Program-made: the position numbers and the translations under genes
The notes under the pieces: generated by a model
Seen by the model: only the letters and a program-made list of their open reading frames with translations
What the model was told of the DNA's origin: nothing
Databases searched by the model: none
Assembly: GCA_943354605.1 (NCBI GenBank)
Contig: CALRCK010000002.1
Coordinates: 135,186 to 199,185 of the forward strand
DNA length: 64,000 bases
Direction: 5' to 3'
Origin: Candidatus Uhrbacteria bacterium
Lineage (GTDB): Bacteria > Patescibacteriota > Patescibacteriia > UBA9934
Part shown: positions 1-45,620 of the stretch, piece by piece
Layout of the letters: each line of letters opens with the position of its first letter
Numbering within the stretch: position 1 is the first letter of the stretch

Positions 1-10
1 GACTCGGTGA

Positions 11-985
11 TCATAGTTGCGGCCACGTAAAGGTATTGAACGCCCACACCGCAAGCGCCTTTGCGTCGTTGAATCGGTCGAGTTTCGAGTGCGCGCCCAA
101 CACCGCAACAAACACTTCGTCTCCATCGTGATCGATCGTGGTAATAAAACAATATCCTGCTTCGGGAATATACCCAGTTTTTCCACCAGTGATTTCGTAC
201 GGCTTCTGATTGAGTAACGAATCAAAAAGCATGTCGGTTGATTGAACGCTGAATACATCGCCACTGACGTGACGAATGGAAAGATGGTCTGACGTCATGA
301 ATTTCGTGAGCACATCTGATTGCTCGGCCTCGCGAAGCAACGGCATCAAATCGCGAGCCGTCGAAACATTACCACTATCAATTCCCGTCACCTCAACAAA
401 CGCGCTCGACGTCATTCCCAGTGCCTTCGCCTTCGTATTCATCGCTGAAATAAAATCGCTATACGACAACCCCGACAATCGCGAGAGCGCCTTCGTTGCC
501 GTGTTATCCGATCCAACAATACTTGCGCCGAGAACATCACGAAGTCTTATACCATCGTTAAAATTCAAATGGACGACCGCTCCCCCAACATAGTCGTCGT
601 CCACAATTTTGACCCACGAATCCAGATCGGGCTTTGTATCAAGGAACACAATCGCCGTCATCAACTTCGTGATACTTCCGATTGACCGAACGTCGTCCGC
701 GTTCTTTGCGAACAACGCGGTACCGCTTTGCGTGTCGGCAACAAATACGCTTTGCGCGTCGGTCACTACGCCGTAGCTGGAAAGATCGGTCTTTTTTGGA
801 GGAAGGAATCGATTCTCCGCAACTGGCAAGGAAATTGGGGTCGATGTCAGCGAAAGCAATGGCGCAGCAAGCGCTTCTGGCGCAGTCGGAATACCGATTT
901 TCCATTCAAGATTCGCCGCATCAACCGGAAGAATCCGCAGGACGGTAAACGCGAGAAGCATTTGTGCGACAACGCGAGAAATCAT
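11..985 (-). CDS. D-alanyl-D-alanine carboxypeptidase (peptidase S11, PBP5/6-like)
   Basis: SxxK (SITK), SDN and KTG active-site motifs in order. N-terminal signal-like segment. ATG at 983-985. Confidence 0.8.
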   Translation of the reverse strand: MISRVVAQMLLAFTVLRILPVDAANLEWKIGIPTAPEALAAPLLSLTSTPISLPVAENRFLPPKKTDLSSYGVVTDAQSVFVADTQSGTALFAKNADDVRSIGSITKLMTAIVFLDTKPDLDSWVKIVDDDYVGGAVVHLNFNDGIRLRDVLGASIVGSDNTATKALSRLSGLSYSDFISAMNTKAKALGMTSSAFVEVTGIDSGNVSTARDLMPLLREAEQSDVLTKFMTSDHLSIRHVSGDVFSVQSTDMLFDSLLNQKPYEITGGKTGYIPEAGYCFITTIDHDGDEVFVAVLGAHSKLDRFNDAKALAVWAFNTFTWPQL

Positions 986-1542
986 ACGGTAGAGGATTCG
1001 GTGGTGAGCGCAGAAAGCAACGCGTCGATCTTTGTATTGCCATGCAGTTCTGCGTAATCGGCAAGCTCGCTCACATTGTGCAAACCGAGATGTCGCAACG
1101 CATCATTCGTAATGCTGTACACCGGCTGAAGCCTCACCTCGTCCTCACTCTCGTCGACCAGTCCTCGCATGAGGAGATTCCGAAGAATCAACGTGCAGTT
1201 GATACCGCGAATCGCCTCAATCTCTGGCTTCGTGATCGGCCCACGATACGCAACAATCGTAAGCGTTTCGAGAGAAGGTCGGGTGAGCTCGGGTTCAATA
1301 TCTTCTTTCGACAAGTTCTCGATTGTTGACGCGAACGACGGATTCGTTGCAAGCGTGATTCCTTCGTCACCGACAACAACATGAATGCCCGACAATTCAT
1401 CGTTGCGCACTGTTGCGAGCTCGTCGACCGCAGCGGCTGCCTCGTCAATCTGACACGAACACGCGTTCGCTAAAAACTTCATCGAGATGGGCTTCGAGCT
1501 TACAAAGAGAATCGCTTCAATTTTTGCCGCCAATTCGGTCAT
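982..1542 (-). CDS. scpB: segregation and condensation protein B
   Basis: ScpB-like winged-helix sequence (EAILFVS...PSLETLTIVAYRGPITKPEIEAIRG). Directly downstream of scpA. Confidence 0.8.
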   Translation of the reverse strand: MTELAAKIEAILFVSSKPISMKFLANACSCQIDEAAAAVDELATVRNDELSGIHVVVGDEGITLATNPSFASTIENLSKEDIEPELTRPSLETLTIVAYRGPITKPEIEAIRGINCTLILRNLLMRGLVDESEDEVRLQPVYSITNDALRHLGLHNVSELADYAELHGNTKIDALLSALTTESSTV

Positions 1543-1544
1543 AT

Positions 1545-1595
1545 GACACTAACTACGTTAGTCGCTAACTTAGTTTGAGGCTAACGAAGTTTGTT
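1545..1595. repeat. tandem array of 13-bp palindrome CTAACTnnGTTAG (3 units, 16-nt period) at -3 to -53 of the scpB start
   Basis: ctaactacgttag-tcg-ctaacttagtttg-agg-ctaacgaagtttg. Confidence 0.75.
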
Positions 1596-2292
1596 CTATT
1601 CGCTCTAAATGAATTTCCGTGCCGTGCGACTCCTGTTTTGCGGTAAGATGACGACGACGGAGCAACTCTAACAACGCCAAAAAGCTTACCACAACTTCAC
1701 GCTTCGTTCCGGCGCCAGCAATCACGTCGCGGAAACGGAGATTCGCCCGGGTCTCGAGCACCGATTTCAATTCATCGATCCGTTCCTCCACCGACTTCGT
1801 GCGTTCCATCGATGTTTCTTGCAACGTAAAGAACGGTTCGAGTCGTTTCAGAATCGAACCGAATGCGTCGCGTAATGCATCGATCGAAATGTTCTTCGCA
1901 GGGTTGAACGATCGCGCGGTTTCACGATTCTTCGTCGCCCGTCGCACAAACATCGCCTTCGCAACGTATCGCTCTTCAAGTTTCACCGCCGCAGCAACAA
2001 ACTCTTGATACAAACGAAGCTGATCTTCGAGTTTTGCAGCGGCCGCGTCCTCTTCATCGATCCGAAGATACGGCATCAGCTCGCAACTCTTCAAATAAAT
2101 CAGACGCGAAGCAATAAGTAAAAAGTCCGCAAGCTCGTCGCTCGGCACGTCGTGCGCTTCAAGATATGCCAAATATTCGTCGGCGACTTTTGCGAGCGAG
2201 ACGGTGGTGATCGGCAAGTTCTTTTCCTCGATAACCTCAAGCAACAGCGCCAACGGCCCAGAAAACCCCTCCTGCTCCACCGAAAATGACAT
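1570..2292 (-). CDS. scpA: segregation and condensation protein A
   Basis: ScpA-like sequence (FSGPLALLLEVIEEKNLPITTVSLAKVADEYL). Track ORF extends to 2406 across a palindromic repeat, so the start was trimmed to the internal ATG at 2290-2292 (MSFSVEQ). Confidence 0.75.
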   Translation of the reverse strand: MSFSVEQEGFSGPLALLLEVIEEKNLPITTVSLAKVADEYLAYLEAHDVPSDELADFLLIASRLIYLKSCELMPYLRIDEEDAAAAKLEDQLRLYQEFVAAAVKLEERYVAKAMFVRRATKNRETARSFNPAKNISIDALRDAFGSILKRLEPFFTLQETSMERTKSVEERIDELKSVLETRANLRFRDVIAGAGTKREVVVSFLALLELLRRRHLTAKQESHGTEIHLERIEQTSLASN

Positions 2293-2316
2293 ATACGGGA
2301 TTGTACATGATTTCTT

Positions 2317-2360
2317 CATCTTCAACCCTAAGGGTTGCCCAACCCTTAGGGTTGAAGATG
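2317..2360. repeat. REP-like paired palindrome CAACCCTTAGGGTTG, copy 1 (perfect 21-bp inverted repeat)
   Basis: catcttcaaccctaagggttg-cc-caacccttagggttgaagatg. Intergenic, between scpA and the cupredoxin gene. Confidence 0.85.
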
Positions 2361-2370
2361 TCATTAGACC

Positions 2371-2400
2371 AAAAACAGGGCTAAAAAGCCCTGTTTTTTC
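2371..2400. terminator. bidirectional rho-independent terminator hairpin
   Basis: aacagggc-taaaaa-gccctgtt flanked by T/A tracts. Sits right after the cupredoxin gene stop. Confidence 0.6.
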
Positions 2401-2417
2401 TTTCAACCCCTAGCGTC

Positions 2418-3248
2418 CTACATCGTCTCTGCGGCGGTAACGACGATTGTTCCGGTCATGTCCGGATGATAGCTACAGTGAAACGTATAAGTTCCCGACG
2501 TACTGAAGCGACGAACAAAGCTCTGTCCCTCCTTCATCGTTCCTGTGCCCCAACTATCGTCGTCTGCCGTAGCAGTATGGCTCACAGCGTCATTATTGAT
2601 GAACTTCATGGTCTGACCAGCGGCAATCGTAAATTGATCACTGTCTCCCCCACCGAACATCATGTTTTCAATGGAGACTTCCGCAAATGCAGTCAACCCC
2701 TTGTCGTCAGTAATCGATGGCGTACCTAATTGAGTTGCCGATGGAACCGACGCTGGTCCAGAAGTGACTGTGGAAAGATCAAGAACATCTCCGATAGTGT
2801 AATTCCCAAAGAATCCATCCGGGACATCGTCAATCATCGTATTCCACTGTGCCCCATACATCCCTTCAGCATCAGTCTCTGTGGAAACCCATCGAAGCAC
2901 CCCGCCTGCCGTCACGAAATATACCTTTGGATCAGAATTGATTTTAATCATCTTCACTCCAGGACGATACGTCACATTTCCACCCATTTGAATTGTTGCG
3001 AGATCCGCATCGCTCAACATTTTTACTGCGGAAAAATCGCTGTACCACGTGAAGTATGTCTTGTCGTTTGGGAATACATACCGGAATCCATCCTCGCCCA
3101 TGTAGTACACCGCAGAGAATGTTGTTCCACGGATCAAATCCCCAGGACTCGCAGCCACTGTCTCTGCGCGAACAAACGCTGAAGGAACAAAGTTCGTAAG
3201 CAGACCAACCATCGCGAATACCGCAAGTGAACGTGATCGAAGATTCAT
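2418..3248 (-). CDS. secreted protein with C-terminal cupredoxin (type-1 copper) domain
   Basis: N-terminal signal peptide (MNLRSRSLAVFAMVGLL). C-terminal H...C-x2-H-x2-M ligand pattern (FHCSYHPDMTG). Track start at 3275 is TTG, so the ATG at 3246-3248 was used. Confidence 0.55.
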   Translation of the reverse strand: MNLRSRSLAVFAMVGLLTNFVPSAFVRAETVAASPGDLIRGTTFSAVYYMGEDGFRYVFPNDKTYFTWYSDFSAVKMLSDADLATIQMGGNVTYRPGVKMIKINSDPKVYFVTAGGVLRWVSTETDAEGMYGAQWNTMIDDVPDGFFGNYTIGDVLDLSTVTSGPASVPSATQLGTPSITDDKGLTAFAEVSIENMMFGGGDSDQFTIAAGQTMKFINNDAVSHTATADDDSWGTGTMKEGQSFVRRFSTSGTYTFHCSYHPDMTGTIVVTAAETM

Positions 3249-3300
3249 ATTAGGGTTAAGCTTAGTTAGTAACAAACTTAGTTAGTCACTAACGTAGTTT
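3249..3300. repeat. tandem 13-bp palindrome array (3 units) upstream of the cupredoxin gene start
   Basis: aagcttagttag-taa-caaacttagttag-tca-ctaacgtagtttg. Confidence 0.75.
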
Positions 3301-3308
3301 GTATGATA

Positions 3309-4622
3309 CTACGGACGCAGTCGCTGCACATCACGCGGGAAGATGGTTGCCTCTTTGACGTTCGCAAGGCCGAGAACGTTTTGCGTCAATCGCTGCAAGC
3401 CAATCGCGAATCCGCCTTCTGGCGGAATGCCGTACTTGTGCATCATCAAGTAGTCCTCAAAATCTGCAACGTTCAATCCTTTATCCACGATGCGCCCCAT
3501 CTGCTCGTCGTACCGATTGATACGCATACCGCCGGACGTAATCTCGCTGCCGAATCCGATGACGTCAAACGTAAGCGTGTTCTCCGGGTTTGCCGGATCA
3601 ACCTTTGCATAGAATGGTCGCTTTGCTGGCGGCCAATCAGTCACGAACACGAATCCGCAGTTGTGGTGCTTCACCGACCACACAGTGGACAACCAGCGTT
3701 CAGCGGCTGGCGAGAGGTCTGGTTCCGATGTCTCATCGACTCCCCCCTCATCACGATACGCCTCGAGCGCCTGTTTCAAGCTTATGCGAGGAAACTTTTC
3801 GCCAAGTGGCGGCAACGTTACTTCAAGAAGTTTGAGCTCGACCGCGCATTCGCGCTCAACCGTTGCGAGCATCTCGCGAATTGCACCCTCTTCAACATCC
3901 ATCACCTCACTCATGTCAGAAACGAAGCCCATTTCAAACTCAAGCTGGTTGAATTCCGTTAAGTGACGCGACGTGGCAAACTTTTCTGCGCGGAACGAAT
4001 ACGACACGCCGTACACGCCCTCATACACGCCCATCGTAATCTGCTTGTAGAGCTGTGCAGACTGCGTAAGTGTTGCTTCGCGGCCGTAATAATCGACCTT
4101 AAAGAATTCCGCACCGCCTTCGCTCGCAGCTCCTGCGAGAACCGGGAAGAAAATTTCTGTGAAGCCCTGCTTTTCCATGAACGAGCGGTAGCCATGAACA
4201 AGCGCGGCCTGCACGCGAAAAATTGCGCGCTGTTTTGGATGACGAAGCGTCACGACGCGATTGTCGAGTAACGTATCAAGATTCGCATCAAGAACCGGCT
4301 TGCCGATTTCGACGGGAACGACATCGACGACCGGCGAAAGCACCTCGAGGCTCTCGACCTGCATTTCGACTTCTTTCACCGACGGATCCTTCGATTTCTT
4401 TTCAACAATCTTTCCAGTCACCGACAGCACTGTTTCGACCTGAAGCCCCTTCAACTGTTCGAGCTGTTCCGCATTCAACACGGTTTGTGCGAGCCCACTC
4501 CGATCTCGGATAATAGCAAAGCCAAACTTGCTCATGTCGCGAAGTGCGTTGAGCCAGCCGGCGATAGTGACGGTTTCGCCGAGCTTTGATGAGAGATCTT
4601 TGATGAGAATTCTATTTTTCAT
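3309..4622 (-). CDS. aspS: aspartyl-tRNA synthetase, archaeal/eukaryotic type (class IIb)
   Basis: Class II motifs (FRAEK..TSRHLTEF). C-terminal GGMRI...YGIPPEGGFAIGLQRL...FPRDVQRLRP matches archaeal-type AspRS. Confidence 0.8.
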   Translation of the reverse strand: MKNRILIKDLSSKLGETVTIAGWLNALRDMSKFGFAIIRDRSGLAQTVLNAEQLEQLKGLQVETVLSVTGKIVEKKSKDPSVKEVEMQVESLEVLSPVVDVVPVEIGKPVLDANLDTLLDNRVVTLRHPKQRAIFRVQAALVHGYRSFMEKQGFTEIFFPVLAGAASEGGAEFFKVDYYGREATLTQSAQLYKQITMGVYEGVYGVSYSFRAEKFATSRHLTEFNQLEFEMGFVSDMSEVMDVEEGAIREMLATVERECAVELKLLEVTLPPLGEKFPRISLKQALEAYRDEGGVDETSEPDLSPAAERWLSTVWSVKHHNCGFVFVTDWPPAKRPFYAKVDPANPENTLTFDVIGFGSEITSGGMRINRYDEQMGRIVDKGLNVADFEDYLMMHKYGIPPEGGFAIGLQRLTQNVLGLANVKEATIFPRDVQRLRP

Positions 4623-4660
4623 AATGAGTAACTTAGTTAGTCAGTAACTTAGTTTCTTTT
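4623..4660. repeat. tandem 13-bp palindrome array (2 units) abutting the aspS ATG
   Basis: gagtaacttagttag-tca-gtaacttagtttc. Starts 1 nt from the aspS start codon. Confidence 0.75.
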
Positions 4661-4663
4661 TCA

Positions 4664-4730
4664 GTCATCCCCGCGCAGGCGGGGATCCAGACCGTTCTGA
4701 ATGATGGATCCCCGCCTGCGCGGGGATGAC
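4664..4730. other. perfect 25-bp GC-rich inverted repeat with a 17-nt loop
   Basis: gtcatccccgcgcaggcggggatcc...ggatccccgcctgcgcggggatgac. Lies between the asnS stop and the aspS start. Confidence 0.85.
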
Positions 4731-4740
4731 CAGAAGTGAA

Positions 4741-6048
4741 TTATGGAGTTGAGCGGCTGAGCATGCGTGGGAAGGCAATGGTTTCGCGAATGTGGTGCAC
4801 GCCAGTGATCCATCGGACCGTTCGCTCAAGACCGATGCCGAAACCGGAGTGTGGCACGCTTCCGTACTTTCGTGTGTTCAAGTACCACTCGTACTCGGCT
4901 AATGGATAATTCCGATCGATAATCTCTTTCTTAAGCGCCTCGTAACTCTCTTCACGCTGACTGCCGCCGATAATCTCGCGGCCTTCTTCTGGTGCAATAA
5001 GATCGGCGCACCTGGCGCGAAGCACGCCGGCGTCGTCCGTGTATCGCTTCATGTAGAACGATTTAATCTCCGCAGGGTAATCTTCGATAAATACCGGAAG
5101 CTGATACTTGTCGCCAAGCGCGATTTCTTCCTCCGTCGACATGTCGCCGAGGAGATCGACGGGCTCGACGGTCAGCTTCTCGTTGTGAAGAATCTTCTTC
5201 GCCTCAGAGTGCTTCAAGTGAACGAATGGTTCGTTGACGATGCGCTCCAAGATCGTCGTATCGCGCTCCAAAATCGCGAGCTCTTGTTTGCAGTTATCAA
5301 GCACGTCTTTGACGATGCGCTTCACCATCTTTTCCTGTACATCCATGTTCATCACTTGGTCGAAGTACGCCATCTCGGCGTCCATCATCCAAAGCTCGCT
5401 CAAGTGATGGCGCGTCTTGCTCTTCTCTGCGCGGAACACTGGACCAAAGTCGTACACTTTTCCAAAGCCCATAATTCCCGCTTCGCTGTAGAGCTGACCA
5501 GACTGCGAGAGATACTTTGGTTCTCCGTAGTAATCCACCTGGAACAACTGCGTGGTATCTTCGCAGCTTGTTGGCTGAATGATTGGGGTATCGAAACGAA
5601 TGAATCCTTCTTCGTGGAAAAACTGTTCGATGGAGAAAAAGACGCGATCACGAATGCGCAGCACAGCCCATGGGGTTTGCGATCGGAGATACAGATCGCG
5701 GTTGTCGAAAAGGAATTCTGGACCGTGCTCTTTCTTTCCGATTGGATAATCCTCTGGTGCAACGTGCACCATCGTGAATCCCGTTCCTTGAATTTCAAAT
5801 CCTGATGGCGAGCGCGGTTCGGCCTTTACGATTCCCTTCACAATGACAGACGACTCAAGACGAACGCCCTGCAACGACTCCCACGATGCCGCGTCGATGT
5901 CGCTTGGCGAGTACACAACCTGAACTCGCCCCGATCCATCACGGAACTGGAGGAAGTAAATTTTGCCGCTGCTTCGAAAATTGTACGCCCAGCCCTTGAG
6001 CTCAACTTCTTGCCCGACCATGGATGCTAACTGTGAAATGTAGGTCAT
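4741..6048 (-). CDS. asnS: asparaginyl-tRNA synthetase
   Basis: Class IIb. C-terminal GGSQREESYEAL...EYEWYLNTRKYGSVPHSGFGIGLER, which is AsnRS-specific. Confidence 0.8.
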   Translation of the reverse strand: MTYISQLASMVGQEVELKGWAYNFRSSGKIYFLQFRDGSGRVQVVYSPSDIDAASWESLQGVRLESSVIVKGIVKAEPRSPSGFEIQGTGFTMVHVAPEDYPIGKKEHGPEFLFDNRDLYLRSQTPWAVLRIRDRVFFSIEQFFHEEGFIRFDTPIIQPTSCEDTTQLFQVDYYGEPKYLSQSGQLYSEAGIMGFGKVYDFGPVFRAEKSKTRHHLSELWMMDAEMAYFDQVMNMDVQEKMVKRIVKDVLDNCKQELAILERDTTILERIVNEPFVHLKHSEAKKILHNEKLTVEPVDLLGDMSTEEEIALGDKYQLPVFIEDYPAEIKSFYMKRYTDDAGVLRARCADLIAPEEGREIIGGSQREESYEALKKEIIDRNYPLAEYEWYLNTRKYGSVPHSGFGIGLERTVRWITGVHHIRETIAFPRMLSRSTP

Positions 6049-6146
6049 AAAAAGAAAATTCGCCTGTACAACGTCACGATTGAATAATCATGAAGCTGTA
6101 CGGGCGAAGTTACTCGCGGTGCCACCGTACTTTTCCGCCAACAGCT

Positions 6147-6245
6147 TTTGGCCGATTTTCGACTCACTCGTCAGAAATTCGCTCACCGTACCGATACGTA
6201 CGCCTCGCGAACGTTCTTCCTCATTCATCGAAACTCTTCGCAAAA
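6147..6245. repeat. structured about 110-nt dispersed repeat, copy F (opposite orientation, between asnS and doc)
   Basis: Contains ttttggccgattttcgact...ccgtaccgatacgtacgcc...catcgaaactcttcgcaaaa, matching the reverse complement of the family consensus. Confidence 0.7.
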
Positions 6246-6373
6246 TCTGTCGCCGAACTCGTTTCTGTTGTATCGATCACTGAATCTAGAAGTTGTTTGC
6301 TCCTAGCGCTCGCTGTCACCACGAACATCAGTGAAATGAGTGTAGCACGAGGGCGAGAACCATTCAAACTTCT

Positions 6374-6784
6374 TTATTCTTGGACAAAAATGATGATTTT
6401 CGCAAATCTCGCCGCAAGATCGATGATGACAGTTTCGGGATCCTGTTTTGTTGACGCGATTTCTTTTGCGAGACGATAGAGCTGACGCCAACCGATCCGA
6501 AGTTCCGCTCGATTCATGTCAAGAAAAATATACAAAATCAGCAGCGCTGAGCGCTTGTTCCCGTCAACAAAATGATGATTCTTGATCACACGATGGAAGA
6601 GTCGCGCGGAAGTAGCAAAGATGTTTCGTCCATCTGGATGCATCGCACACAGTGCGAGATCGGATTCAATAGTAGAGACCCAAACATCATCAATTACCGG
6701 GAGATACGCCTCTAAATTCGAATTCCTTTGAGCGATCTCAATCCAGAGCAACAAATCTCCTGCGCTCGGAAACAGCAACGTCAC
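6374..6784 (-). CDS. doc: Doc (death-on-curing) toxin, Fic family
   Basis: Fic/Doc motif HHFVDGNKRSALL. GTG start at 6782-6784. Confidence 0.75.
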   Translation of the reverse strand: MTLLFPSAGDLLLWIEIAQRNSNLEAYLPVIDDVWVSTIESDLALCAMHPDGRNIFATSARLFHRVIKNHHFVDGNKRSALLILYIFLDMNRAELRIGWRQLYRLAKEIASTKQDPETVIIDLAARFAKIIIFVQE

Positions 6785-6785
6785 A

Positions 6786-6929
6786 TTATTCCTGAGAAAG
6801 TTTCTTCATGGCAGGCCCAAATTTTTTAGCAAATCTCTCCGTGCTTTCACGGAAACGTTTTGTACGAGGGTCTTCGTCAGTTTTTTTCAAAGAAAATACA
6901 GAGAAAATTTTGCCGATAATCTTTTTCAT
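6786..6929 (-). CDS. small ORF (47 aa) immediately upstream of doc; candidate antitoxin
   Basis: ATG at 6927-6929. Translation is MKKIIGKIFSVFSLKKTDEDPRTKRFRESTERFAKKFGPAMKKLSQE. Its stop lies 1 nt before the doc GTG. Not in the ORF track (under 60 aa) and no recognisable Phd/YefM similarity. Confidence 0.3.
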   Translation of the reverse strand: MKKIIGKIFSVFSLKKTDEDPRTKRFRESTERFAKKFGPAMKKLSQE

Positions 6930-6970
6930 ACATTTTCATCCTAACACGATTCACGTCCTATCCAAAATCT

Positions 6971-7639
6971 CTACTTCACCTTCCCCACTCTCTGCATTTT
7001 ATCGATCAACGAAAGCTCTTCAAAACGAACGTGTTTCTTTGCCGCAAATCGCCAGTGGTGTATTGCGACCGCCCAGGCCAGGAGCGTTACCAAGAGCATT
7101 CCAAGAACCTGCTGCCAATGAAATAGCGGATATATTGCCGCATAAATTCCAAGCTCTGCATACGTTCCGTTCCAATACACAAGACCATCAGCAACATCAC
7201 CTTCATGAATCGTGAACCATATCGGAACAATCGTCCACCGATCCTGAACGACAGCTCCATTAACCTCCGCGGAAAGCAGAAGGTCGTCGTACCCAACAGA
7301 CTTTTTCGTGTGAACGTATGTAAGATCAACGACAGTTACCTGAACCTTTTCTGTTGGATGAACCAAAAACGGATATCGCGGAAGCATCGTTACCGTGAAC
7401 ACTGCCGCCATTCCAAAGCCCCATATCACAATCGCCGCCACAGCAACCAGTCGATAAAATCTTCGCTCGCCATCCTTCATCGTCACCATCGTCGATGCAG
7501 GAATTTTTTTGTATAGCGCGTTCAAACGCTCGTTGTGCCGCGCATGACGGCGTTTCAATTGCTGATACCGTACATACGGCAGAATAACGCAGAAGGCAAC
7601 GATAAAAAGCAGAATAACGACGAGGAAAAACTCCTTCAT
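6971..7639 (-). CDS. hypothetical membrane protein
   Basis: Three hydrophobic segments. No recognisable motifs. Start trimmed to MKEFFLVV. Confidence 0.45.
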   Translation of the reverse strand: MKEFFLVVILLFIVAFCVILPYVRYQQLKRRHARHNERLNALYKKIPASTMVTMKDGERRFYRLVAVAAIVIWGFGMAAVFTVTMLPRYPFLVHPTEKVQVTVVDLTYVHTKKSVGYDDLLLSAEVNGAVVQDRWTIVPIWFTIHEGDVADGLVYWNGTYAELGIYAAIYPLFHWQQVLGMLLVTLLAWAVAIHHWRFAAKKHVRFEELSLIDKMQRVGKVK

Positions 7640-7684
7640 ATTGAGCGAGTATATCAAAACTCGACAACAAACGACCTGACCCCT

Positions 7685-8461
7685 TTAGGGTCTCACCGGC
7701 ACCGCCAAGACGCCCGTCCAAAATGGCATGACGATTTCGCCGGGGACGTGGTAGACGTACACGTCGTGGACACATTGGACGAAATCTTCCACCTGCTGAC
7801 CGAGGAGCGGCATGCGCATGAGGGATTCGTACGATTCGTCGCGGCCAATGCGCATCAACGTCACGATTTCCTCGTCCATCGGACGAGCCGAGAACCAATC
7901 TTCAGGATTCTTCTGTACACAATCAGAACACACCAGTCCCCCACGTCCGCCGTGCCAGCGGAATGAAAGTGGGAGAACATTTTTCCGACACGCTAAACAA
8001 TCGTGAAGCTCGACGCCATAGCCGAGGCGGCCAAGCAGTCGAAGAATCGTTGCGCCGAGGACGAAAGCGCTTCTGGTATTTTGAAGTGTGATCTGCGAGT
8101 TTAAAAATCGAACAAGATCAATCACTTCATCGAACAGTTCGGGATCAGCCAAGTCCGGTCGAATCGCCTTGGCCAACATCGCGAATAATGTTTGCGTAAA
8201 CATTCGGTGTTCGAGATTCGTTTGAATCCGATCGAATACTTCGCGTCGTTCCACGCCGATAACAGTCGTCGATCGTGCGCCTTTCACGATTTCGAGCTCC
8301 ACGATCGCGAACGGTTCAAGATGTGCAGCAAGCTTTGCGCGCGGCTTTTGCGCACCACGCCCCACGAATTCAATCAACCCAAATTCCGGCGTTAAGGCGC
8401 TGTACCACCGATCGGATTCTCTCCACGCCGATGAAGTTAATACGATCGCCGTCGTTTTCAT
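7685..8461 (-). CDS. recO: DNA repair protein RecO
   Basis: OB-fold N-terminus and C-terminal Cys4 zinc motif (CLACRKN...CSDC). Confidence 0.75.
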   Translation of the reverse strand: MKTTAIVLTSSAWRESDRWYSALTPEFGLIEFVGRGAQKPRAKLAAHLEPFAIVELEIVKGARSTTVIGVERREVFDRIQTNLEHRMFTQTLFAMLAKAIRPDLADPELFDEVIDLVRFLNSQITLQNTRSAFVLGATILRLLGRLGYGVELHDCLACRKNVLPLSFRWHGGRGGLVCSDCVQKNPEDWFSARPMDEEIVTLMRIGRDESYESLMRMPLLGQQVEDFVQCVHDVYVYHVPGEIVMPFWTGVLAVPVRP

Positions 8462-8475
8462 CGTGCTCCACATAC

Positions 8476-8901
8476 TTATTCCTCCCGTCGCTTTGCGTCG
8501 TCAATCGTGAGCTCAACGTCGCCATCCAGAAATGCTTGGAGAATAATCTGCGCCGCAATCGCGTCTTCCGGCATCTCACTTCCGTATTCCTGTTGCAACC
8601 GACGAGCTTCGGCTGATGTGAATTGTTCGTCAACGACGAATACCGGCATCGATGTCGCGGTCTGTACATCGCGAACAAATTGCTTCGTCAATTCTAGCTG
8701 CGCATCAGACTGATGTGCGTCTGGAATCGGCAAACCGATGACAAGTGCCTCGGCGCCCTCGTCTCGAGCGCGGTTCATGATGGTCGAGATCGCCTTCACT
8801 CCCCCGTCGATATTGCCCATCGGAAACGCCAACCCCGTCTCGTCGTCGCCCGACGCAAGACCGATTTTCTTGAGGCCGAAGTCAATTCCTAAATATTTCA
8901 T
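8476..8901 (-). CDS. ruvX: Holliday junction resolvase-like YqgF/RuvX
   Basis: N-terminal YLGIDFGLKKIGLA motif. Start trimmed to MKYLGIDFG. Confidence 0.8.
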   Translation of the reverse strand: MKYLGIDFGLKKIGLASGDDETGLAFPMGNIDGGVKAISTIMNRARDEGAEALVIGLPIPDAHQSDAQLELTKQFVRDVQTATSMPVFVVDEQFTSAEARRLQQEYGSEMPEDAIAAQIILQAFLDGDVELTIDDAKRREE

Positions 8902-8914
8902 ATTCACAGCTCCG

Positions 8915-8993
8915 TCTTTGCGAGCGTAGCGAAGCAATCTCGGTTCACCCGGATTGCCGCGTCGCGATTACGCTCCTCGCAATGACGGAGTAT
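8915..8993. mobile_element. MITE-like element, copy M3
   Basis: Left arm tttgcgagcgtagcgaagcaatctcgg, right arm cgctcctcgcaatgacgg. Lies between ruvX and the upstream hypothetical gene. Confidence 0.55.
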
Positions 8994-8994
8994 G

Positions 8995-9438
8995 TTATTT
9001 CGCTTCTGGTGACGAAGTGAAATCTGCACGAACCGAAACGCTATTCGATGTAACCGGCATATCTTGTGAGATCACGAGTTTTCCGTCGCCGTTGTCCACA
9101 TGCAGCAGTGCGACGTACGTCAGTCCATCCTCCATTGGTTCCGACGTCAAAATCGTTACCGTCGCATTCTCGCTCGCGGCAATCAATCCGGATGAACCGA
9201 TGATTGGCCCAGGAGCACTCCCAATCGATTTGTGAATCGTCACGAATCCTGGCTTGAGGAGCGTTGCCGTGATATCGGCTTCGCCATTGCCTGGCGCGGT
9301 CGCGGCAATCGAGCTCCCCGTGATTTCAACAGGCCCATAGCTCAACTCTGGCGCAGGCTTGGCGAGATACAAAAACAGACCGATCGCCGCGATGACGATG
9401 AGGAGAATCACGCCGCCAAAAATATCGTCTTTTTTCAT
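8995..9438 (-). CDS. hypothetical membrane-anchored protein
   Basis: One N-terminal transmembrane segment followed by a Gly/Ser/Thr-rich domain. No recognisable motifs. Confidence 0.4.
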   Translation of the reverse strand: MKKDDIFGGVILLIVIAAIGLFLYLAKPAPELSYGPVEITGSSIAATAPGNGEADITATLLKPGFVTIHKSIGSAPGPIIGSSGLIAASENATVTILTSEPMEDGLTYVALLHVDNGDGKLVISQDMPVTSNSVSVRADFTSSPEAK

Positions 9439-9556: not shown

Positions 9557-10342
9557 TTACATTGTGACTCCTCGGACTTTCGGTACAGGCGTGAGAATCT
9601 CTGGTCCGCTTGGCAAAATCGCGACAGTCACTTCGAAATGCGCCGCGTCGCTGTTGTCGGCGGTCACAATCGTCCACTCGTCATCAGAAACCTCCACCTC
9701 GTGCGTTCCCGTGGTCACCATCGGTTCGATAGCAATACACATTCCGTCCACGAGCGGCGCTTTTGGAAAATGCTTTCCGCGGAAATTTGGAACATTTGGT
9801 GCCTCGTGCACCTGATGCCCAACGCCATGACCAACGAGTGATTCTACGATACCGTAGCCCTTCGGCACCGCGTCTTCAACGGCCCCAGCGATATCCATGA
9901 CGGTGTTTCCGATGACTGCAGCATCGACGCCAGCCATCATCGAATCGTATGTGATACGAAGCAACGTTGCACGCTCCTTGGTAATCGATCCAATTGGTAC
10001 CGTTACCGCCATGTCTGTACAAAGCCCCTTATACCAGCATCCAATGTCGAGGCCGACGATATCGCCCTCGTCGAGAACGATTTCGCGATTGCCCAAACCG
10101 TGAACCACCTCCTCGTTTCTGGAGATACACACGGTTGCCGGGAAAGGCCGACTCTTTGATCCGTATCCAAGAAACGACGGCGTGCCACCACCAGCCTCAA
10201 TAACGCCGCGAGCAATGTCGTCCAGCTGTTTCATCGTCACGCCCGGCTTTGCGGCGTCAACCGCAGCCTGTAACGCCCTTGAAAGCAGTGCGCCGCCTTC
10301 ACGCATCGCCTGAATTTCTTCTTTCGTCTTAATATTCGCCAT
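9557..10342 (-). CDS. map: methionine aminopeptidase type I
   Basis: MetAP fold with metal ligands D..D..H..E..E. Sits at the end of the r-protein cluster together with adk, as is typical. Confidence 0.9.
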   Translation of the reverse strand: MANIKTKEEIQAMREGGALLSRALQAAVDAAKPGVTMKQLDDIARGVIEAGGGTPSFLGYGSKSRPFPATVCISRNEEVVHGLGNREIVLDEGDIVGLDIGCWYKGLCTDMAVTVPIGSITKERATLLRITYDSMMAGVDAAVIGNTVMDIAGAVEDAVPKGYGIVESLVGHGVGHQVHEAPNVPNFRGKHFPKAPLVDGMCIAIEPMVTTGTHEVEVSDDEWTIVTADNSDAAHFEVTVAILPSGPEILTPVPKVRGVTM

Positions 10343-11073: not shown

Positions 11074-11108
11074 TCAACCCTTAGCGTTGACCGACCCTTA
11101 GGGTTGAA
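11074..11108. repeat. REP-like paired palindrome, copy 2 (opposite orientation)
   Basis: tcaacccttagcgttgaccgacccttagggttgaa. Between secY and adk, followed by a terminator hairpin. Confidence 0.8.
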
Positions 11109-24157: not shown

Positions 24158-24193
24158 TTCAACCCTTAGGGTTGGTCAACGCTAAGGGTTGAC
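24158..24193. repeat. REP-like paired palindrome, copy 3
   Basis: ttcaacccttagggttggtcaacgctaagggttgacc. Intergenic. Confidence 0.8.
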
Positions 24194-30468: not shown

Positions 30469-30506
30469 TTTCAACCCTTAGGGTTGGTCAACGCTAAGGG
30501 TTGGCC
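30469..30506. repeat. REP-like paired palindrome, copy 4
   Basis: ttcaacccttagggttggtcaacgctaagggttggcc. Between the HTH gene and the M50 protease gene. Confidence 0.8.
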
Positions 30507-36261: not shown

Positions 36262-36307
36262 CTAACTTAGTTTGTCGCGAACTAAGTTAGTCACAAACTT
36301 AGTTCGT
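36262..36307. repeat. tandem 13-bp palindrome array (3 units) between the leuS stop and the comEC start
   Basis: ctaacttagtttg-tcg-cgaactaagttag-tca-caaacttagttcg. Overlaps the leuS stop codon. Confidence 0.75.
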
Positions 36308-42098: not shown

Positions 42099-43346
42099 AT
42101 GGACCTTTTCGATTCCATCCTCACCCAACCATCCGCAAACACGCCGCTCGCGGAGCGGATGCGGCCAAAAACGCTCGAGGAATTCGAGGGGCAGCAGGAT
42201 GTGATTGGGCCGGGTTCGCCGCTCTACACGGCGATCGTTTCCGATGACGTTCCGAGTCTGATGCTTTGGGGGCCGCCGGGAACAGGAAAGACGACGCTCG
42301 CACACATTGTTGCGACGATGACGAAGGCACGATTTGTTCCCTTCTCTGCCGTTGGCGGAAGCGTCAAAGATGTCCGAACCATCATCGACCAGGCGGAAAC
42401 CGATCGAAAATATTACAAACGGAAAACAATCCTTTTTGTTGACGAGATTCATCGGTTTAACAAAGCGCAACAAGACGCGTTTTTGCCGTCGGTAGAAAAC
42501 GGAACGATTATTCTCATTGGTGCAACCACTGAGAACCCATCCTTCGCCGTGAACGGCGCGCTGCTTTCGCGTTCTCGCGTCATCGTCCTCAAACAACTGG
42601 AGCCGGAATCGATCATAAAGATTCTCAAACGCGCGATCACCGACAAAGAACTCGGCCTCGGCACAGAAAACATCGTGATCGACGAGGACGCGATCGGCAT
42701 GCTTGCGAATTTTGCGAACGGCGATGCACGATCGGCGCTCAACACACTCGATCTTGCGGTGAAGACATCAAGGGGCGCACCAATCACCACCGATCTCATT
42801 AAAACCGCGCTCACAAAAAGCCATTTGCATTACGACAAAGACGGCGAAGAGCATTACAACATCATCTCCGCGCTCCACAAATCCATGCGGGGGAACAATG
42901 CGAACGCGGCACTGTATTGGATGGGACGAATGCTGCTTTCCGGGGAAGATCCTCGATACGTCACGCGTCGACTCATTCGGTTCGCGAGCGAAGACATCGG
43001 ACTTGCCGATCCGAATGCGCTGGTTCAGGCCATTGCCGCACACGATGCCGCACAAATGATCGGCATGCCGGAATGCTCGGTTAATATTGCGCAATGTGTG
43101 GCGTACTTATCGAAAGCGCCAAAATCGAATGCGCTTTACACCGCGTGGCAGTCCATTTCCGACGACATCCAAAACCTTCCGAACGAACCGGTTCCAATTC
43201 ACCTTCGGAATGCTCCAACCAAACTCATGAAGGATCTCGGCTACGGCAAAAACTACAAATACACGCCAAATTTCAAAAACGCAGAGGATGCGAGGCAGGA
43301 GTATTTACCAAAGTCGCTCAAGGCAAAAAAGTATTTTTTAGACTAA
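42099..43346 (+). CDS. rarA: replication-associated recombination protein A (AAA+ ATPase)
   Basis: Walker A LWGPPGTGKTTLA, Walker B LFVDEIHRFN, and the MgsA C-terminal domain. Confidence 0.9.
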   Translation: MDLFDSILTQPSANTPLAERMRPKTLEEFEGQQDVIGPGSPLYTAIVSDDVPSLMLWGPPGTGKTTLAHIVATMTKARFVPFSAVGGSVKDVRTIIDQAETDRKYYKRKTILFVDEIHRFNKAQQDAFLPSVENGTIILIGATTENPSFAVNGALLSRSRVIVLKQLEPESIIKILKRAITDKELGLGTENIVIDEDAIGMLANFANGDARSALNTLDLAVKTSRGAPITTDLIKTALTKSHLHYDKDGEEHYNIISALHKSMRGNNANAALYWMGRMLLSGEDPRYVTRRLIRFASEDIGLADPNALVQAIAAHDAAQMIGMPECSVNIAQCVAYLSKAPKSNALYTAWQSISDDIQNLPNEPVPIHLRNAPTKLMKDLGYGKNYKYTPNFKNAEDARQEYLPKSLKAKKYFLD

Positions 43347-43372
43347 CTAAGTTAGTCCCAAACTTAGTTTAA
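43340..43372. repeat. tandem 13-bp palindrome array (2 units) between the convergent rarA and ABC exporter stops
   Basis: gactaactaagttag-tcc-caaacttagttta. Overlaps the rarA TAA. Confidence 0.7.
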
Positions 43373-45139
43373 TTTCTGTTTTTCCCAAAGCTCGAAGAAC
43401 CGACCGCGTTTGTTGTACAGATCGGTAAATGATCCCGATTCGATGATGCGGCCACCTTCAAGCACAAGAATGCGATCCATTTCCTTAATTGTCGTGAGTC
43501 GATGAGCAATAACAAGAGCGGTGACATTCTTAAAGAAGACATGAAGTGAATCCTGGATCTTTTCTTCGGATTCTACATCGAGATGCGACGTTGCTTCGTC
43601 GAGGAACAGCACGTCCGGCTCTTTGAACACGGCTCGAGCGATTCCGACGCGCTGGCGCTCACCACCAGAAAGCTTTACCCCCTTCTCACCAATCGCAGTC
43701 TCGACACCATAGGGTAATCGATAGAGGAACGAGGTGACGTGCGCGATGTTTAACGCCTTCTCGAGCGCTGCGTCGTCGTTCTTCTTTGGATTTGCGAGAA
43801 GAATATTCTCACGCAGTGAAAGGTTGAACACTTCGGTTTCCTGCAACACGACCGTCGCCTTTTGGTAATACGAGCTCTTCTTAATCGATCGCAAAGGCAC
43901 GTCATCTACGAGAATCTCACCAGTGTAATTTTCGTTTTCTTTCAGCAACAACTTAAACAGCGTCGATTTCCCTGCGCCAGATAATCCAACGAGCCCAAGA
44001 CGCTCGCCGCGATGCAGATCAAACGAAATATTGTGCAGTACCTCATCTCCGCCGTAGGAAAACGAAAGATTCCGCACGGAAATTATTTTCCAATCTTTGG
44101 GAAAATTCCGCGTTGCGTCGCGACCATCGAGGAACGATTCAATACTCAACAATTCTTGCATGCGCGCAACAGCAAGCTTTTGCATAATAAAGTCCTGAAC
44201 GGTGTCTGAAAAACTTGATGCACAGTCAATAACACGCCCAAAATAAAAGTTGAAGATAATGAGGAAACCTACGCCATACGTACCGCGGAGAATTCCAAGC
44301 GCAATCACAAGAACCACAACCATGCGGAAGGTAATAGAGTACGCGCTCAGCACAACAGCCTGACTCTGAAAACGATAAATCCGCTCTTGTACACGGTTAA
44401 AAACATCGTTCGCGGCTCCCTGAACGCGGCCCATCAATCCAGCGCTCATATTCAACACCTTGACGGTACGAATGTTATTCACCCCCTCAAACATCACACC
44501 ATTGAGCTCTTCTTCCTTCGCATTGACCTGCTGCGCAGCAATGCGCGCCTTCTTGATTAATTTTTGATTGATTGCAATGTACGACAACAAAAATATTGCT
44601 GTCACAGCGGCGATAAATCGATCGGTGATACCAATCATCACCACGGTTCCAATAAAAATGACGATCATCTCAATGGTGCCATTAATCCAAATCCGCATGA
44701 GTCGATCGATGGCGTCACCACCACGATCGAGACGCTTCAATTTATTCCCCGCATTTTCACGCTCGTGCCACGCCATGTCGAGCGCAAAAAGCTTTGTCAT
44801 CGACGCATTCTTTGCATCCAACGCAGCACGCTCTCCAGCTCCAAAACCATACTTTCGTGCAAAATACTGACCGAATATTTTGAGAATCATTGACACCACC
44901 CAACCCGCAAACAACCACCAAAGCATCGTCAATGGCTCCCCCGCCTTCCACGACACGCAAAAGGTGAGAATCGTCGCAAGAACCCATGCGGGATACAACC
45001 ACGCAACATCTGAGATAAAACGTGATGCTGTTCCAAGAATCACTTTACCTTTATACGGCGAAAGAAAATGCCACACATCTCGAAAGAGCTGTGTGGTGGT
45101 GTAGTTTTTCTCGAAGACCTGTTCTTTTGTATCGGTCAT
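43364..45139 (-). CDS. ABC transporter, fused permease/ATP-binding (MsbA-like exporter)
   Basis: Six-helix transmembrane domain, Walker A GLSGAGKST, LSGGERQR signature, Walker B LFLDEATS. Start trimmed to MTDTKEQ because upstream track sequence crosses a repeat. Confidence 0.85.
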   Translation of the reverse strand: MTDTKEQVFEKNYTTTQLFRDVWHFLSPYKGKVILGTASRFISDVAWLYPAWVLATILTFCVSWKAGEPLTMLWWLFAGWVVSMILKIFGQYFARKYGFGAGERAALDAKNASMTKLFALDMAWHERENAGNKLKRLDRGGDAIDRLMRIWINGTIEMIVIFIGTVVMIGITDRFIAAVTAIFLLSYIAINQKLIKKARIAAQQVNAKEEELNGVMFEGVNNIRTVKVLNMSAGLMGRVQGAANDVFNRVQERIYRFQSQAVVLSAYSITFRMVVVLVIALGILRGTYGVGFLIIFNFYFGRVIDCASSFSDTVQDFIMQKLAVARMQELLSIESFLDGRDATRNFPKDWKIISVRNLSFSYGGDEVLHNISFDLHRGERLGLVGLSGAGKSTLFKLLLKENENYTGEILVDDVPLRSIKKSSYYQKATVVLQETEVFNLSLRENILLANPKKNDDAALEKALNIAHVTSFLYRLPYGVETAIGEKGVKLSGGERQRVGIARAVFKEPDVLFLDEATSHLDVESEEKIQDSLHVFFKNVTALVIAHRLTTIKEMDRILVLEGGRIIESGSFTDLYNKRGRFFELWEKQKLN

Positions 45140-45175
45140 AGAAGAAATGATATCAGAAATGACTTTGGCGCTTTT

Positions 45176-45300
45176 ATTCGCGACCAGTTTCGATGAAGAT
45201 CGAGGAAAGCTTCTGAGACGTACTTCTTGGTACGTTGAAGAAGTTTCCGATGATCTGAATCGAAAATGGGCCGAAGAAATGCGCCAAAAGGAAAGCCGGC
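45176..45300. repeat. structured about 110-nt dispersed repeat, copy B (upstream of the ABC exporter)
   Basis: Same family. Outer stem ggaaagcttct/agaagtttcc is compensatory relative to copy A. Confidence 0.8.
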
Positions 45301-45620
45301 CGAGCTCTAGATGCAACTGACACCCCTTCGTAAGAGGTCGCCATCTGGTGTTGCAACGAACTCGGCCGGACAGTACCGCGCGTGATGCCATGAGACCGCT
45401 CCCCAGTGGTCTGTACATTCGACGCCGCGCGCGACGTGGTAGCCCATTACTGACTGGGCAAAAAGGACGGGTCCTTCAATCGTCTCGGAACCTGAGGTTG
45501 AAAGGAAGTTCAAAGCCGCAACGAGAGACCCGCTCGTTGAGCCTATCAAATATCGCCAATCCCCTCAAACCGCAAGCCCCGAGGTTTTCCCCCGGGGCTC
45601 CGTAGCGTTTGTGCTGCCTG

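Follow-up and report, generated by a model that had tools for sequence, protein, structure and literature searches.

The tandem palindromic arrays of the window (the whole 64-kb stretch of DNA that was analysed) most probably form a REP/BIME-like family of extragenic palindromes belonging to a Patescibacteria REP-RAYT system, a reading to which we assign a probability of about 0.8. REP-RAYT systems present a debated instance of a 'replicator within a genome' that persists over long times by vertical inheritance, and most work on them concerns Proteobacteria; the available portions of the literature describe them mainly in Proteobacteria, Cyanobacteria and Bacteroidetes. Elements of this kind are known, and Patescibacteria appear to be a new phylum for them: the literature searched yielded no report joining RAYT or REPIN with Patescibacteria.

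Arrays in the window and at related loci

Thirteen units of CWAACTWAGTTWG are present in the 64-kb window, grouped into five arrays of 3, 3, 2, 3 and 2 units (Table 1). The pattern CTAACTNAGTTAG occurs seven times with at most one mismatch, against 0.02 expected from shuffles, and up to three mismatches recover all 13 units. The five arrays had been reported in an earlier note on this DNA, with coordinates that proved right to within a few bases, and the 16-nt period described there is exact for all 13 units. Four arrays lie, as it had said, close to the ATG of a minus-strand gene (scpB, the cupredoxin-like gene, the AspRS-type synthetase gene and comEC). About 94% of the window is open reading frame and all five arrays fall at gene boundaries; with so much coding sequence, any intergenic element abuts a start or a stop codon, and closeness to an ATG follows from the size of the gap. 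Two arrays had been said to overlap the stop codons of upstream genes (leuS and rarA), and this count has to be raised, as the stops of four genes lie inside arrays: scpA in array 1, leuS in array 4 and, in array 5, rarA together with the ABC-transporter gene that converges on it. Array 5 has no start codon nearby. Taken together, the arrays are tied to stops no less than to starts.

Table 1. Repeat features of the window, numbered from its first base.
Feature	Span	Units	Sequence	Neighbouring genes
Array 1	1549-1593	1549-1561, 1565-1577, 1581-1593	CTAACTACGTTAG tcg CTAACTTAGTTTG agg CTAACGAAGTTTG	between scpA and scpB; scpA stop 1570-1572 within array; scpB ATG 1542 (minus strand) 6 nt off
Array 2	3257-3301	3257-3269, 3273-3285, 3289-3301		between 437-aa AspRS-type synthetase gene (stop 3309) and cupredoxin-like gene; array end 8 nt before cupredoxin-like ATG 3248 (minus strand)
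Array 3	4628-4656	4628-4640, 4644-4656		5 nt upstream of 437-aa AspRS-type synthetase ATG 4622 (minus strand)
Array 4	36262-36306	36262-36274, 36278-36290, 36294-36306		leuS stop 36299-36301 within array; comEC ATG 36257 (minus strand) 4 nt off
Array 5	43343-43371	43343-43355, 43359-43371		between convergent rarA (plus strand, stop 43344-43346) and ABC-transporter gene (minus strand, stop 43364-43366)
Family 2, site 1	2324-2353		CAACCCTWAGGGTTG	
Family 2, site 2	11076-11105		CAACCCTWAGGGTTG	
Family 2, site 3	24161-24190		CAACCCTWAGGGTTG	
Family 2, site 4	30473-30502		CAACCCTWAGGGTTG	
Inverted pair		4667-4686, 4708-4727	ATCCCCGCGCAGGCGGGGAT	between the two synthetase genes, preceding array 3

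The lack of a Shine-Dalgarno (SD) sequence at the arrays, also remarked upon earlier, is real and is not special to them, GGAG-type motifs being rare upstream of genes throughout the window. Very few window genes carry GGAG, GAGG or AGGA within 20 nt upstream, many starts are preceded by an A/T-rich AAT-ATG, and the organism appears to be SD-poor. An anti-SD or translation signal was rejected as an explanation of the arrays, since in a genome that is SD-poor throughout the missing SD at the arrays is uninformative.

Proteins of the window are found on metagenome contigs of Logan and ENA, and their close homologues carry a Patescibacteria annotation. A pattern scan for two units, using one genome per species, gave matches in two Patescibacteria metagenome-assembled genomes (MAGs) and in CAYMYA01 (L007), a 14-kb contig of a MAG labelled Gammaproteobacteria, which is syntenic with the window at 57-92% aa identity. 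A scan of metagenomes added 38 further loci; some 23 of these belong to the same kind, and groundwater was the main source. Loci such as L006, L009, L015, L019-L021, L026, L029-L033, L038, L039 and L047 were set aside as unrelated because of a C/G centre, a location inside long ORFs or a different composition. Loci L003-L047 were found through the motif, and the conservation of its core across them is therefore partly circular.

Thirty distinct arrays (73 units) were pooled, comprising 19 of two units, ten of three units and one of five. Across the 73 units, positions 3-6 (AACT) and 8-11 (AGTT) hardly vary, in part through ascertainment, and the variable positions are 1, 2, 7, 12, 13 and the spacer. 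The unit had been described as a near-perfect palindrome, which does not fit single units: they are imperfect, with positions 2 and 12 complementary in 29% of the 73. In its common two-unit form, CAAACTnAGTTAG-nnn-CTAACTnAGTTTG, the array makes a 29-bp palindrome centred on the 3-nt spacer, often with A-runs and T-runs outside it. Spacers vary (TCA, TGA, TCG, CCA and others), and orientation relative to neighbouring genes or transcription is not fixed.

On the related contigs, nearly all arrays that can be placed between called ORFs are intergenic. At co-directional junctions the upstream stop very often lies in the first unit, typically as AAC-TAA, giving a C-terminal Asn, and the next ATG follows 4-24 nt past the last unit. 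Arrays that contain stops also lie at convergent junctions (array 5 of the window, L004 and L046), and there is occasional divergent or 3′-terminal placement (L005, L028, L045), L005 being far from any start codon. Overall, 15 of about 23 adjacent stops are inside the first or last unit, and, depending on the locus, the array is separated from the ATG by as little as 4 nt or by more than 100 nt. According to the available portion of one study (PMC3733652), REPs are found for the most part downstream of coding regions, between ORFs that are unidirectional or convergent; to that extent the distribution of the arrays is the published REP distribution, and unlike that of a promoter or ribosome-binding element.

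Locus L013 carries two nearly identical two-unit arrays (275-303 and 1403-1431), 1128 bp apart, whose left flanks are the same over about 25 nt. They stand in front of two paralogous genes in tandem (303 and 282 aa; no Pfam match), one array before each gene, and the pair may reflect a duplication that carried its array along.

The RAYT gene beside the arrays

Locus L045 contains a 208-aa ORF with arrays on both sides, one of which supplies its last ~13 codons. The protein matches Pfam Y1_Tnp (PF01797) above the cut-off (E = 1.6e-10), and its best NCBIfam model is REP_Tyr_transpos, at 44 bits, below the 80-bit equivalog cut-off. Homologues number 776 at E <= 1e-10, and those with a named source come from Patescibacteria lineages. 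Further genomic contexts were fetched by exact protein identity, with the motif unused: P0007 led to L048/L049, P0006 to L050/L051 (in a MAG shared with L007), P0004 to L052 and P0005 to L053. Arrays of two to three units occur on both sides of the RAYT gene in L045, L048/L049, L050/L051, L052 and L053, and are the sole arrays in those 4-15-kb loci. The RAYT gene is the only recurrent gene neighbour of the arrays; no DNA-binding protein gene recurs. Its setting, between a divergent peptidase S8 gene and a TPR gene (S8 <-> RAYT -> TPR), is conserved in all five contexts, and TnpB is not present in the contexts examined. From this conserved synteny and the missing TnpB, the RAYT gene looks to be single-copy at the examined loci.

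An AlphaFold2 model of the protein (mean pLDDT 88, from a 27-sequence alignment) finds as its top PDB fold match 4ER8_A, the structure of E. coli TnpA-REP in complex with a REP hairpin (E = 9e-8, TM 0.76 on target, 160 of 165 residues). The IS608, ISDra2 and IS200 transposases rank behind it, aligned over ~110-130 residues. A sequence-only PDB search with the protein did not reach 4ER8, which was recovered by the fold search. The motifs NH[FY]H (the HUH motif) and YIH[RL]NP are invariant in all members examined. A Y...NP signature characterises class-2 TnpA-REP proteins, as opposed to the Y....Q of IS200-type enzymes (Quentin et al. 2018, PMC6006769), and YIH[RL]NP fits the class-2 form. By its Pfam and NCBIfam matches, its motifs and its predicted fold, the protein is a Y1/HUH enzyme of the RAYT type.

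No RAYT homologue is encoded within the 64-kb window. One homologue, P0002, is 80% identical to the RAYT of L052 and 62% identical to that of L045, and its record is one contig of 212,070 bp (NCBI, Logan, ENA). The same length, as that of the longest contig, and the same set of sources are also recorded for the ScpB, AspRS, RarA and ComEC proteins of the window; a search with the neighbouring S8 peptidase listed no contig of this length. From these matching contig records P0002 appears to lie on the window's own contig, outside the window.

More distant RAYT genes are flanked by variant repeats. The RAYT of L053 (56% identity) has a variant core that is not self-complementary, with AACCTAGTT upstream and AACTAGGTT downstream, inverted relative to each other across the gene. 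Because this core is not self-complementary, the inversion between the flanks is visible, as has been described for RAYT genes. The RAYT of L054 (45% identity) has GTCGAAGCTAAGCTTCGAC on both flanks, and that of L055 (39% identity) is flanked by tandem pairs of CAGGGCTWAGCCCTG with a 22-bp period. The centre CTNAG (CTAG in L053) is common to the Patescibacteria RAYT lineages examined. The variants at these three loci are evidence, at the level of sequence, that repeat and RAYT co-evolve. In L055 a REP copy, CAGGGCTTAGCCCTG, is located inside an Uhrbacteria-type RAYT gene (10174-10188); for subclass 2.4, REP insertions within tnpA-REP genes have been reported (PMC6006769).

Close relatives and the alternative readings

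Two populations close to the window genome (86-97% aa identity) were retrieved through their AspRS, RarA and S8-peptidase proteins. Their identity to the window proteins is 97% for the second synthetase, 96% for AspRS, 94% for SecY and RecO, 93% for RarA, 91% for ScpB, 90% for LeuS and 87% for ComEC. On the basis of shared contig records, L056 and L060 (236,793 bp) were taken as one genome, and L063 and L064 (311,883 bp) as another. At the syntenic locus (L056, L064) a gap of 72 nt separates the TPR gene from the S8 gene, and no RAYT gene lies in it. No family-1 array is present in 86.7 kb of the two relatives, where 6.8 would be expected at the density of the window (Poisson P ~1e-3); 'RAYT-less' refers here to the syntenic locus and the 87 kb covered.

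Examination of the individual junctions gives the same picture. The scpA and scpB genes of L060 overlap (GTATGA; ATGA type) and are array-free; those of L007 also overlap in the ATGA manner without an array, and array 1 of the window behaves as an indel of ~55 bp relative to both, adding nine codons to scpA. L060 has a 32-nt gap without the motif at the AspRS|cupredoxin junction, and TAA-T-ATG with nothing between at the junction of the two synthetase genes. The leuS/comEC/rarA region of L063 has no array, including the sequence after the leuS and rarA stops. The motif is missing from all five orthologous junctions of these close relatives (86-97% aa identity). Absence from orthologous promoters in close relatives is what the earlier note had named as counting against a regulatory role, so that this role is refuted on the note's own terms. 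Of the three explanations it had offered, a small site-specific repeat was near the mark, and operator arrays and promoter elements are unsupported. Since the arrays are missing in such close relatives, the neighbouring housekeeping genes function without them, and since RAYT and arrays are absent together, gene and repeats come and go together.

In L052 the array-RAYT-array cassette lies between two 34-bp direct repeats (3580-3615 and 4388-4422), each a terminator-like hairpin (GGAAACAAAAGAACGGTACCyACAGGCAyCGTTC). L056 and L064 have a single copy of the hairpin in the same TPR|S8 gap (~9930-9990), an empty site, which suggests either that the cassette was lost by recombination between the 34-bp repeats or that it was inserted with duplication. 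The clade is a natural experiment, near-identical genomes having either the cassette and arrays or an empty site and no arrays, and it makes the dependence of the repeats on RAYT, and their cost or benefit to neighbouring genes, testable.

More distant relatives that are RAYT-positive, L007 and L046, share array positions with the window. L007 has arrays at two of three window junctions, where flanking genes share 57-77% aa identity: one at the AspRS|cupredoxin junction and one, of three units, at the junction of array 3. L046 (75% aa identity) has an array at the same convergent rarA junction. At these shared junctions the core is kept and the variable positions have changed; both loci were found through their arrays and are unusable for estimating how frequently junctions are shared. 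There are two possibilities, either that the arrays are ancestral and were cleanly removed in RAYT-less lineages, or that insertion occurred repeatedly at preferred junctions. Seamless excision is a property of this enzyme family.

These comparisons bear on the other explanations of the arrays. It is unlikely that they are primarily host RNA or DNA punctuation (mRNA-end hairpins, attenuation of read-through or insulation of translation), to which the link with RAYT is secondary. The tie to stop codons (15 of ~23 in a first or last unit) would suit such a function, as would the presence of arrays at the same junctions in L007 and L046, where identity in the flanking proteins is no more than 57-77%, and the accessible part of the literature reports that E. 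coli REPs act as 3′UTR elements; however, the closest relatives keep the same genes without arrays. Strong RNA folds are predicted for array 4 of the window (-21 kcal/mol, z = -3.1) and for L004 (-21 kcal/mol), but fold energy is not conserved, with array 3 reaching only -7.3 kcal/mol and array 1 folding no better than shuffles (z = +0.2). A uniform RNA hairpin was rejected on the same grounds, as z ranges from +0.2 to -6 and stability is not the conserved property. No sense-strand U-tract follows the arrays and a terminator scan does not flag them, while canonical GC-rich terminators exist elsewhere in the same genome. Intrinsic terminators were likewise discarded, the stems being AT-rich and arrays 1, 2 and 4 having no T-run on the sense side. 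A role at the level of the host, as RNA hairpin or punctuation, is possible, and the data can be accounted for without it.

Operator or roadblock sites for a dimeric regulator that binds tandem palindromes cooperatively, in the manner of MetJ, ArgR, Fur or the phage stoperators, would account for the conserved core AACTNAGTT, the strict 16-bp phase and the 2-5 tandem copies. The AGTTWG-N3-CWAACT register is the half-site spacing typical of helix-turn-helix dimers. We nevertheless hold this to be very improbable: the arrays neighbour housekeeping genes of unrelated function, they are also found between convergent genes and behind terminal ones, close relatives have none at the orthologous junctions, and the recurrent neighbour is RAYT only, with no gene for a DNA-binding protein. 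Mycobacteriophage stoperators and start-associated sequences are 13-bp motifs in tiny intergenic gaps that overlap stops or lie upstream of starts. These are asymmetric, single, oriented along transcription, repressor-bound and phage-borne, whereas the units here are palindromic, tandem and unoriented, and belong to a cellular genome.

Less probable again is a role as promoter elements, or as elements of translation initiation, for genes that are leaderless or lack an SD. In the window, four arrays stop 4-8 nt short of an ATG, the units include TAnnnT hexamers and the genome is poor in SD motifs; against this, a sigma-70 scan of positions 1-9000 finds nothing at arrays 1-3, the distance to the ATG varies from 4 to more than 100 nt across loci with no fixed orientation, array 5, L004, L005 and L046 have no downstream start, and close relatives do without the arrays. 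A sigma-70 promoter was also rejected by hand inspection, TTGTCA-N17-TAACTT being found only on the strand opposite the genes.

DNA-uptake signals for natural competence (compare the DUS and USS of Neisseria and Haemophilus) can practically be dismissed: the lineage has ComEC, and uptake sequences in other bacteria often form inverted pairs after genes, but isolated units are not enriched here (12 single cores with at most one mismatch against ~24 expected), and the motif occurs only as phased arrays and not within genes. A CRISPR array was discarded because the 13-nt units and 3-nt spacers differ from the 23-47-nt repeats and unique spacers of similar length in those loci. Rfam identifies only two tRNAs in the window, a literature string search for the motif gave chance matches only, and viral contigs gave no match to it.

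A candidate REP-RAYT mechanism and its relation to known systems

Under the REP-RAYT reading, a single-copy, chromosomally fixed HUH/Y1 tyrosine transposase homologue (RAYT) would recognise the single-stranded DNA hairpins of the palindromes. One unit could form a 5-bp stem with a TNA loop, and two adjacent units a 13-bp stem with a 3-nt loop. Cutting and rejoining by RAYT at such hairpins may copy, extend or remove units and arrays, and the copies that survive would be those in harmless places, in the few bases from stop to start or between convergent stops. TAA and TAG triplets in each unit would allow upstream reading frames to enter the first unit and stop there. This mechanism is carried over from the homologous TnpA-REP of E. 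coli and from the transposases of IS200/IS605, and it is from these analogies that we infer the binding and cleavage of array sequences by RAYT and the route by which arrays would spread or be lost.

The E. coli REP/BIME elements are likewise short, multi-copy extragenic palindromes in regular clusters between unidirectional and convergent genes, and the E. coli RAYT (TnpA-REP/YafM, 4ER8), the best fold match of our predicted model, is a Y1/HUH protein whose gene is flanked by repeats. The system described here departs from the textbook REP in several respects. Its unit is 13 nt long (16-nt period) versus ~35 nt in E. coli, is AT-rich and self-complementary, each unit being a palindrome, and is repeated in strict 16-bp tandem. 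None of the units is flanked by a classical REP head (GT[AG]G, or CGTC), so that the GTAG head of E. coli REPs is lacking. Further departures are the shared CTNAG centre (CTAG in L053) and extremely tight packing, in which arrays overlap stop codons and abut start codons. The enzyme also differs from class-2 RAYTs, with F-E in place of W-Q and only ~16% identity to 4ER8.

The REPIN-RAYT systems of Pseudomonas (Bertels & Rainey; PMC3116915, PMC5581495) offer a close parallel, in that a RAYT, there single-copy and vertically inherited and here apparently so, is accompanied by cognate repeats, the lineage-specific repeat sequence co-varies with RAYT, and repeats are gone where RAYT is gone. Two-unit arrays form a hairpin as a REP doublet does. 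Pseudomonas REPINs consist of two inverted REPs of ~25 nt with a longer spacer, whereas the units here are head-to-tail, with a 3-nt spacer and up to five copies, and their orientation is undefined because the core is self-complementary (except for the L053 variant). With the TnpA of IS200/IS605 elements (IS608, ISDra2) the protein shares the HUH/Y1 fold, and those enzymes recognise hairpins of single-stranded DNA; unlike them, it has no TnpB, does not look multicopy, occupies a conserved chromosomal position, has Y...NP where they have Y....Q, and its repeats are dispersed without the gene.

A stronger form of the proposal, which we regard as possible and rather doubtful, is that these proteins make up a RAYT subclass of the Patescibacteria's own (NHFH, F-E for W-Q, YIHRNP) with CTNAG mini-hairpin repeats, and that the arrays have been co-opted as intercistronic punctuation. 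If co-opted, with stops in every frame and a hairpin, they would affect coupling, read-through or the mRNA ends of housekeeping genes. On the main reading, REP repeats are tolerated even where a genome is ultra-small and streamlined and leaves hardly any DNA between genes; they fit so closely there that stop codons are provided by the repeats and start codons adjoin them. For annotation, this is a warning against taking every conserved palindrome just upstream of a start in a compact genome for an operator or a ribosome-binding signal.

The window also contains a second family of tandem palindromes, CAACCCTWAGGGTTG, built like the main family, with a 17-bp period, two units per site and a CTNAG centre (Table 1). 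It has nine matches in the window against 1.2 expected. Over both units and the spacer, the sites at 24161 and 30473 barely differ in sequence, and two copies occupy the space that separates a GC-rich terminator hairpin from the start codon after it. The family is absent from the sequence of the RAYT-less relatives, and it is probably a second REP class.

Array 3 is preceded by an unrelated, GC-rich inverted pair of ATCCCCGCGCAGGCGGGGAT, 21 nt apart, whose two members are the sole copies in the window. The pair is absent from the same junction in L007 and L060 and looks like another small palindromic insertion; its stem resembles type I-E CRISPR repeats only superficially.

Two gene calls of the window probably have a wrong start codon. 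The 278-aa scpA call includes a terminator hairpin and a family-2 array (window 2291-2406, minus strand); its start is likely mis-called, as conservation with L007 begins near the ATG at 2291. The 684-aa ABC-transporter ORF (43364-45418) probably starts at an internal Met, judged against L046.
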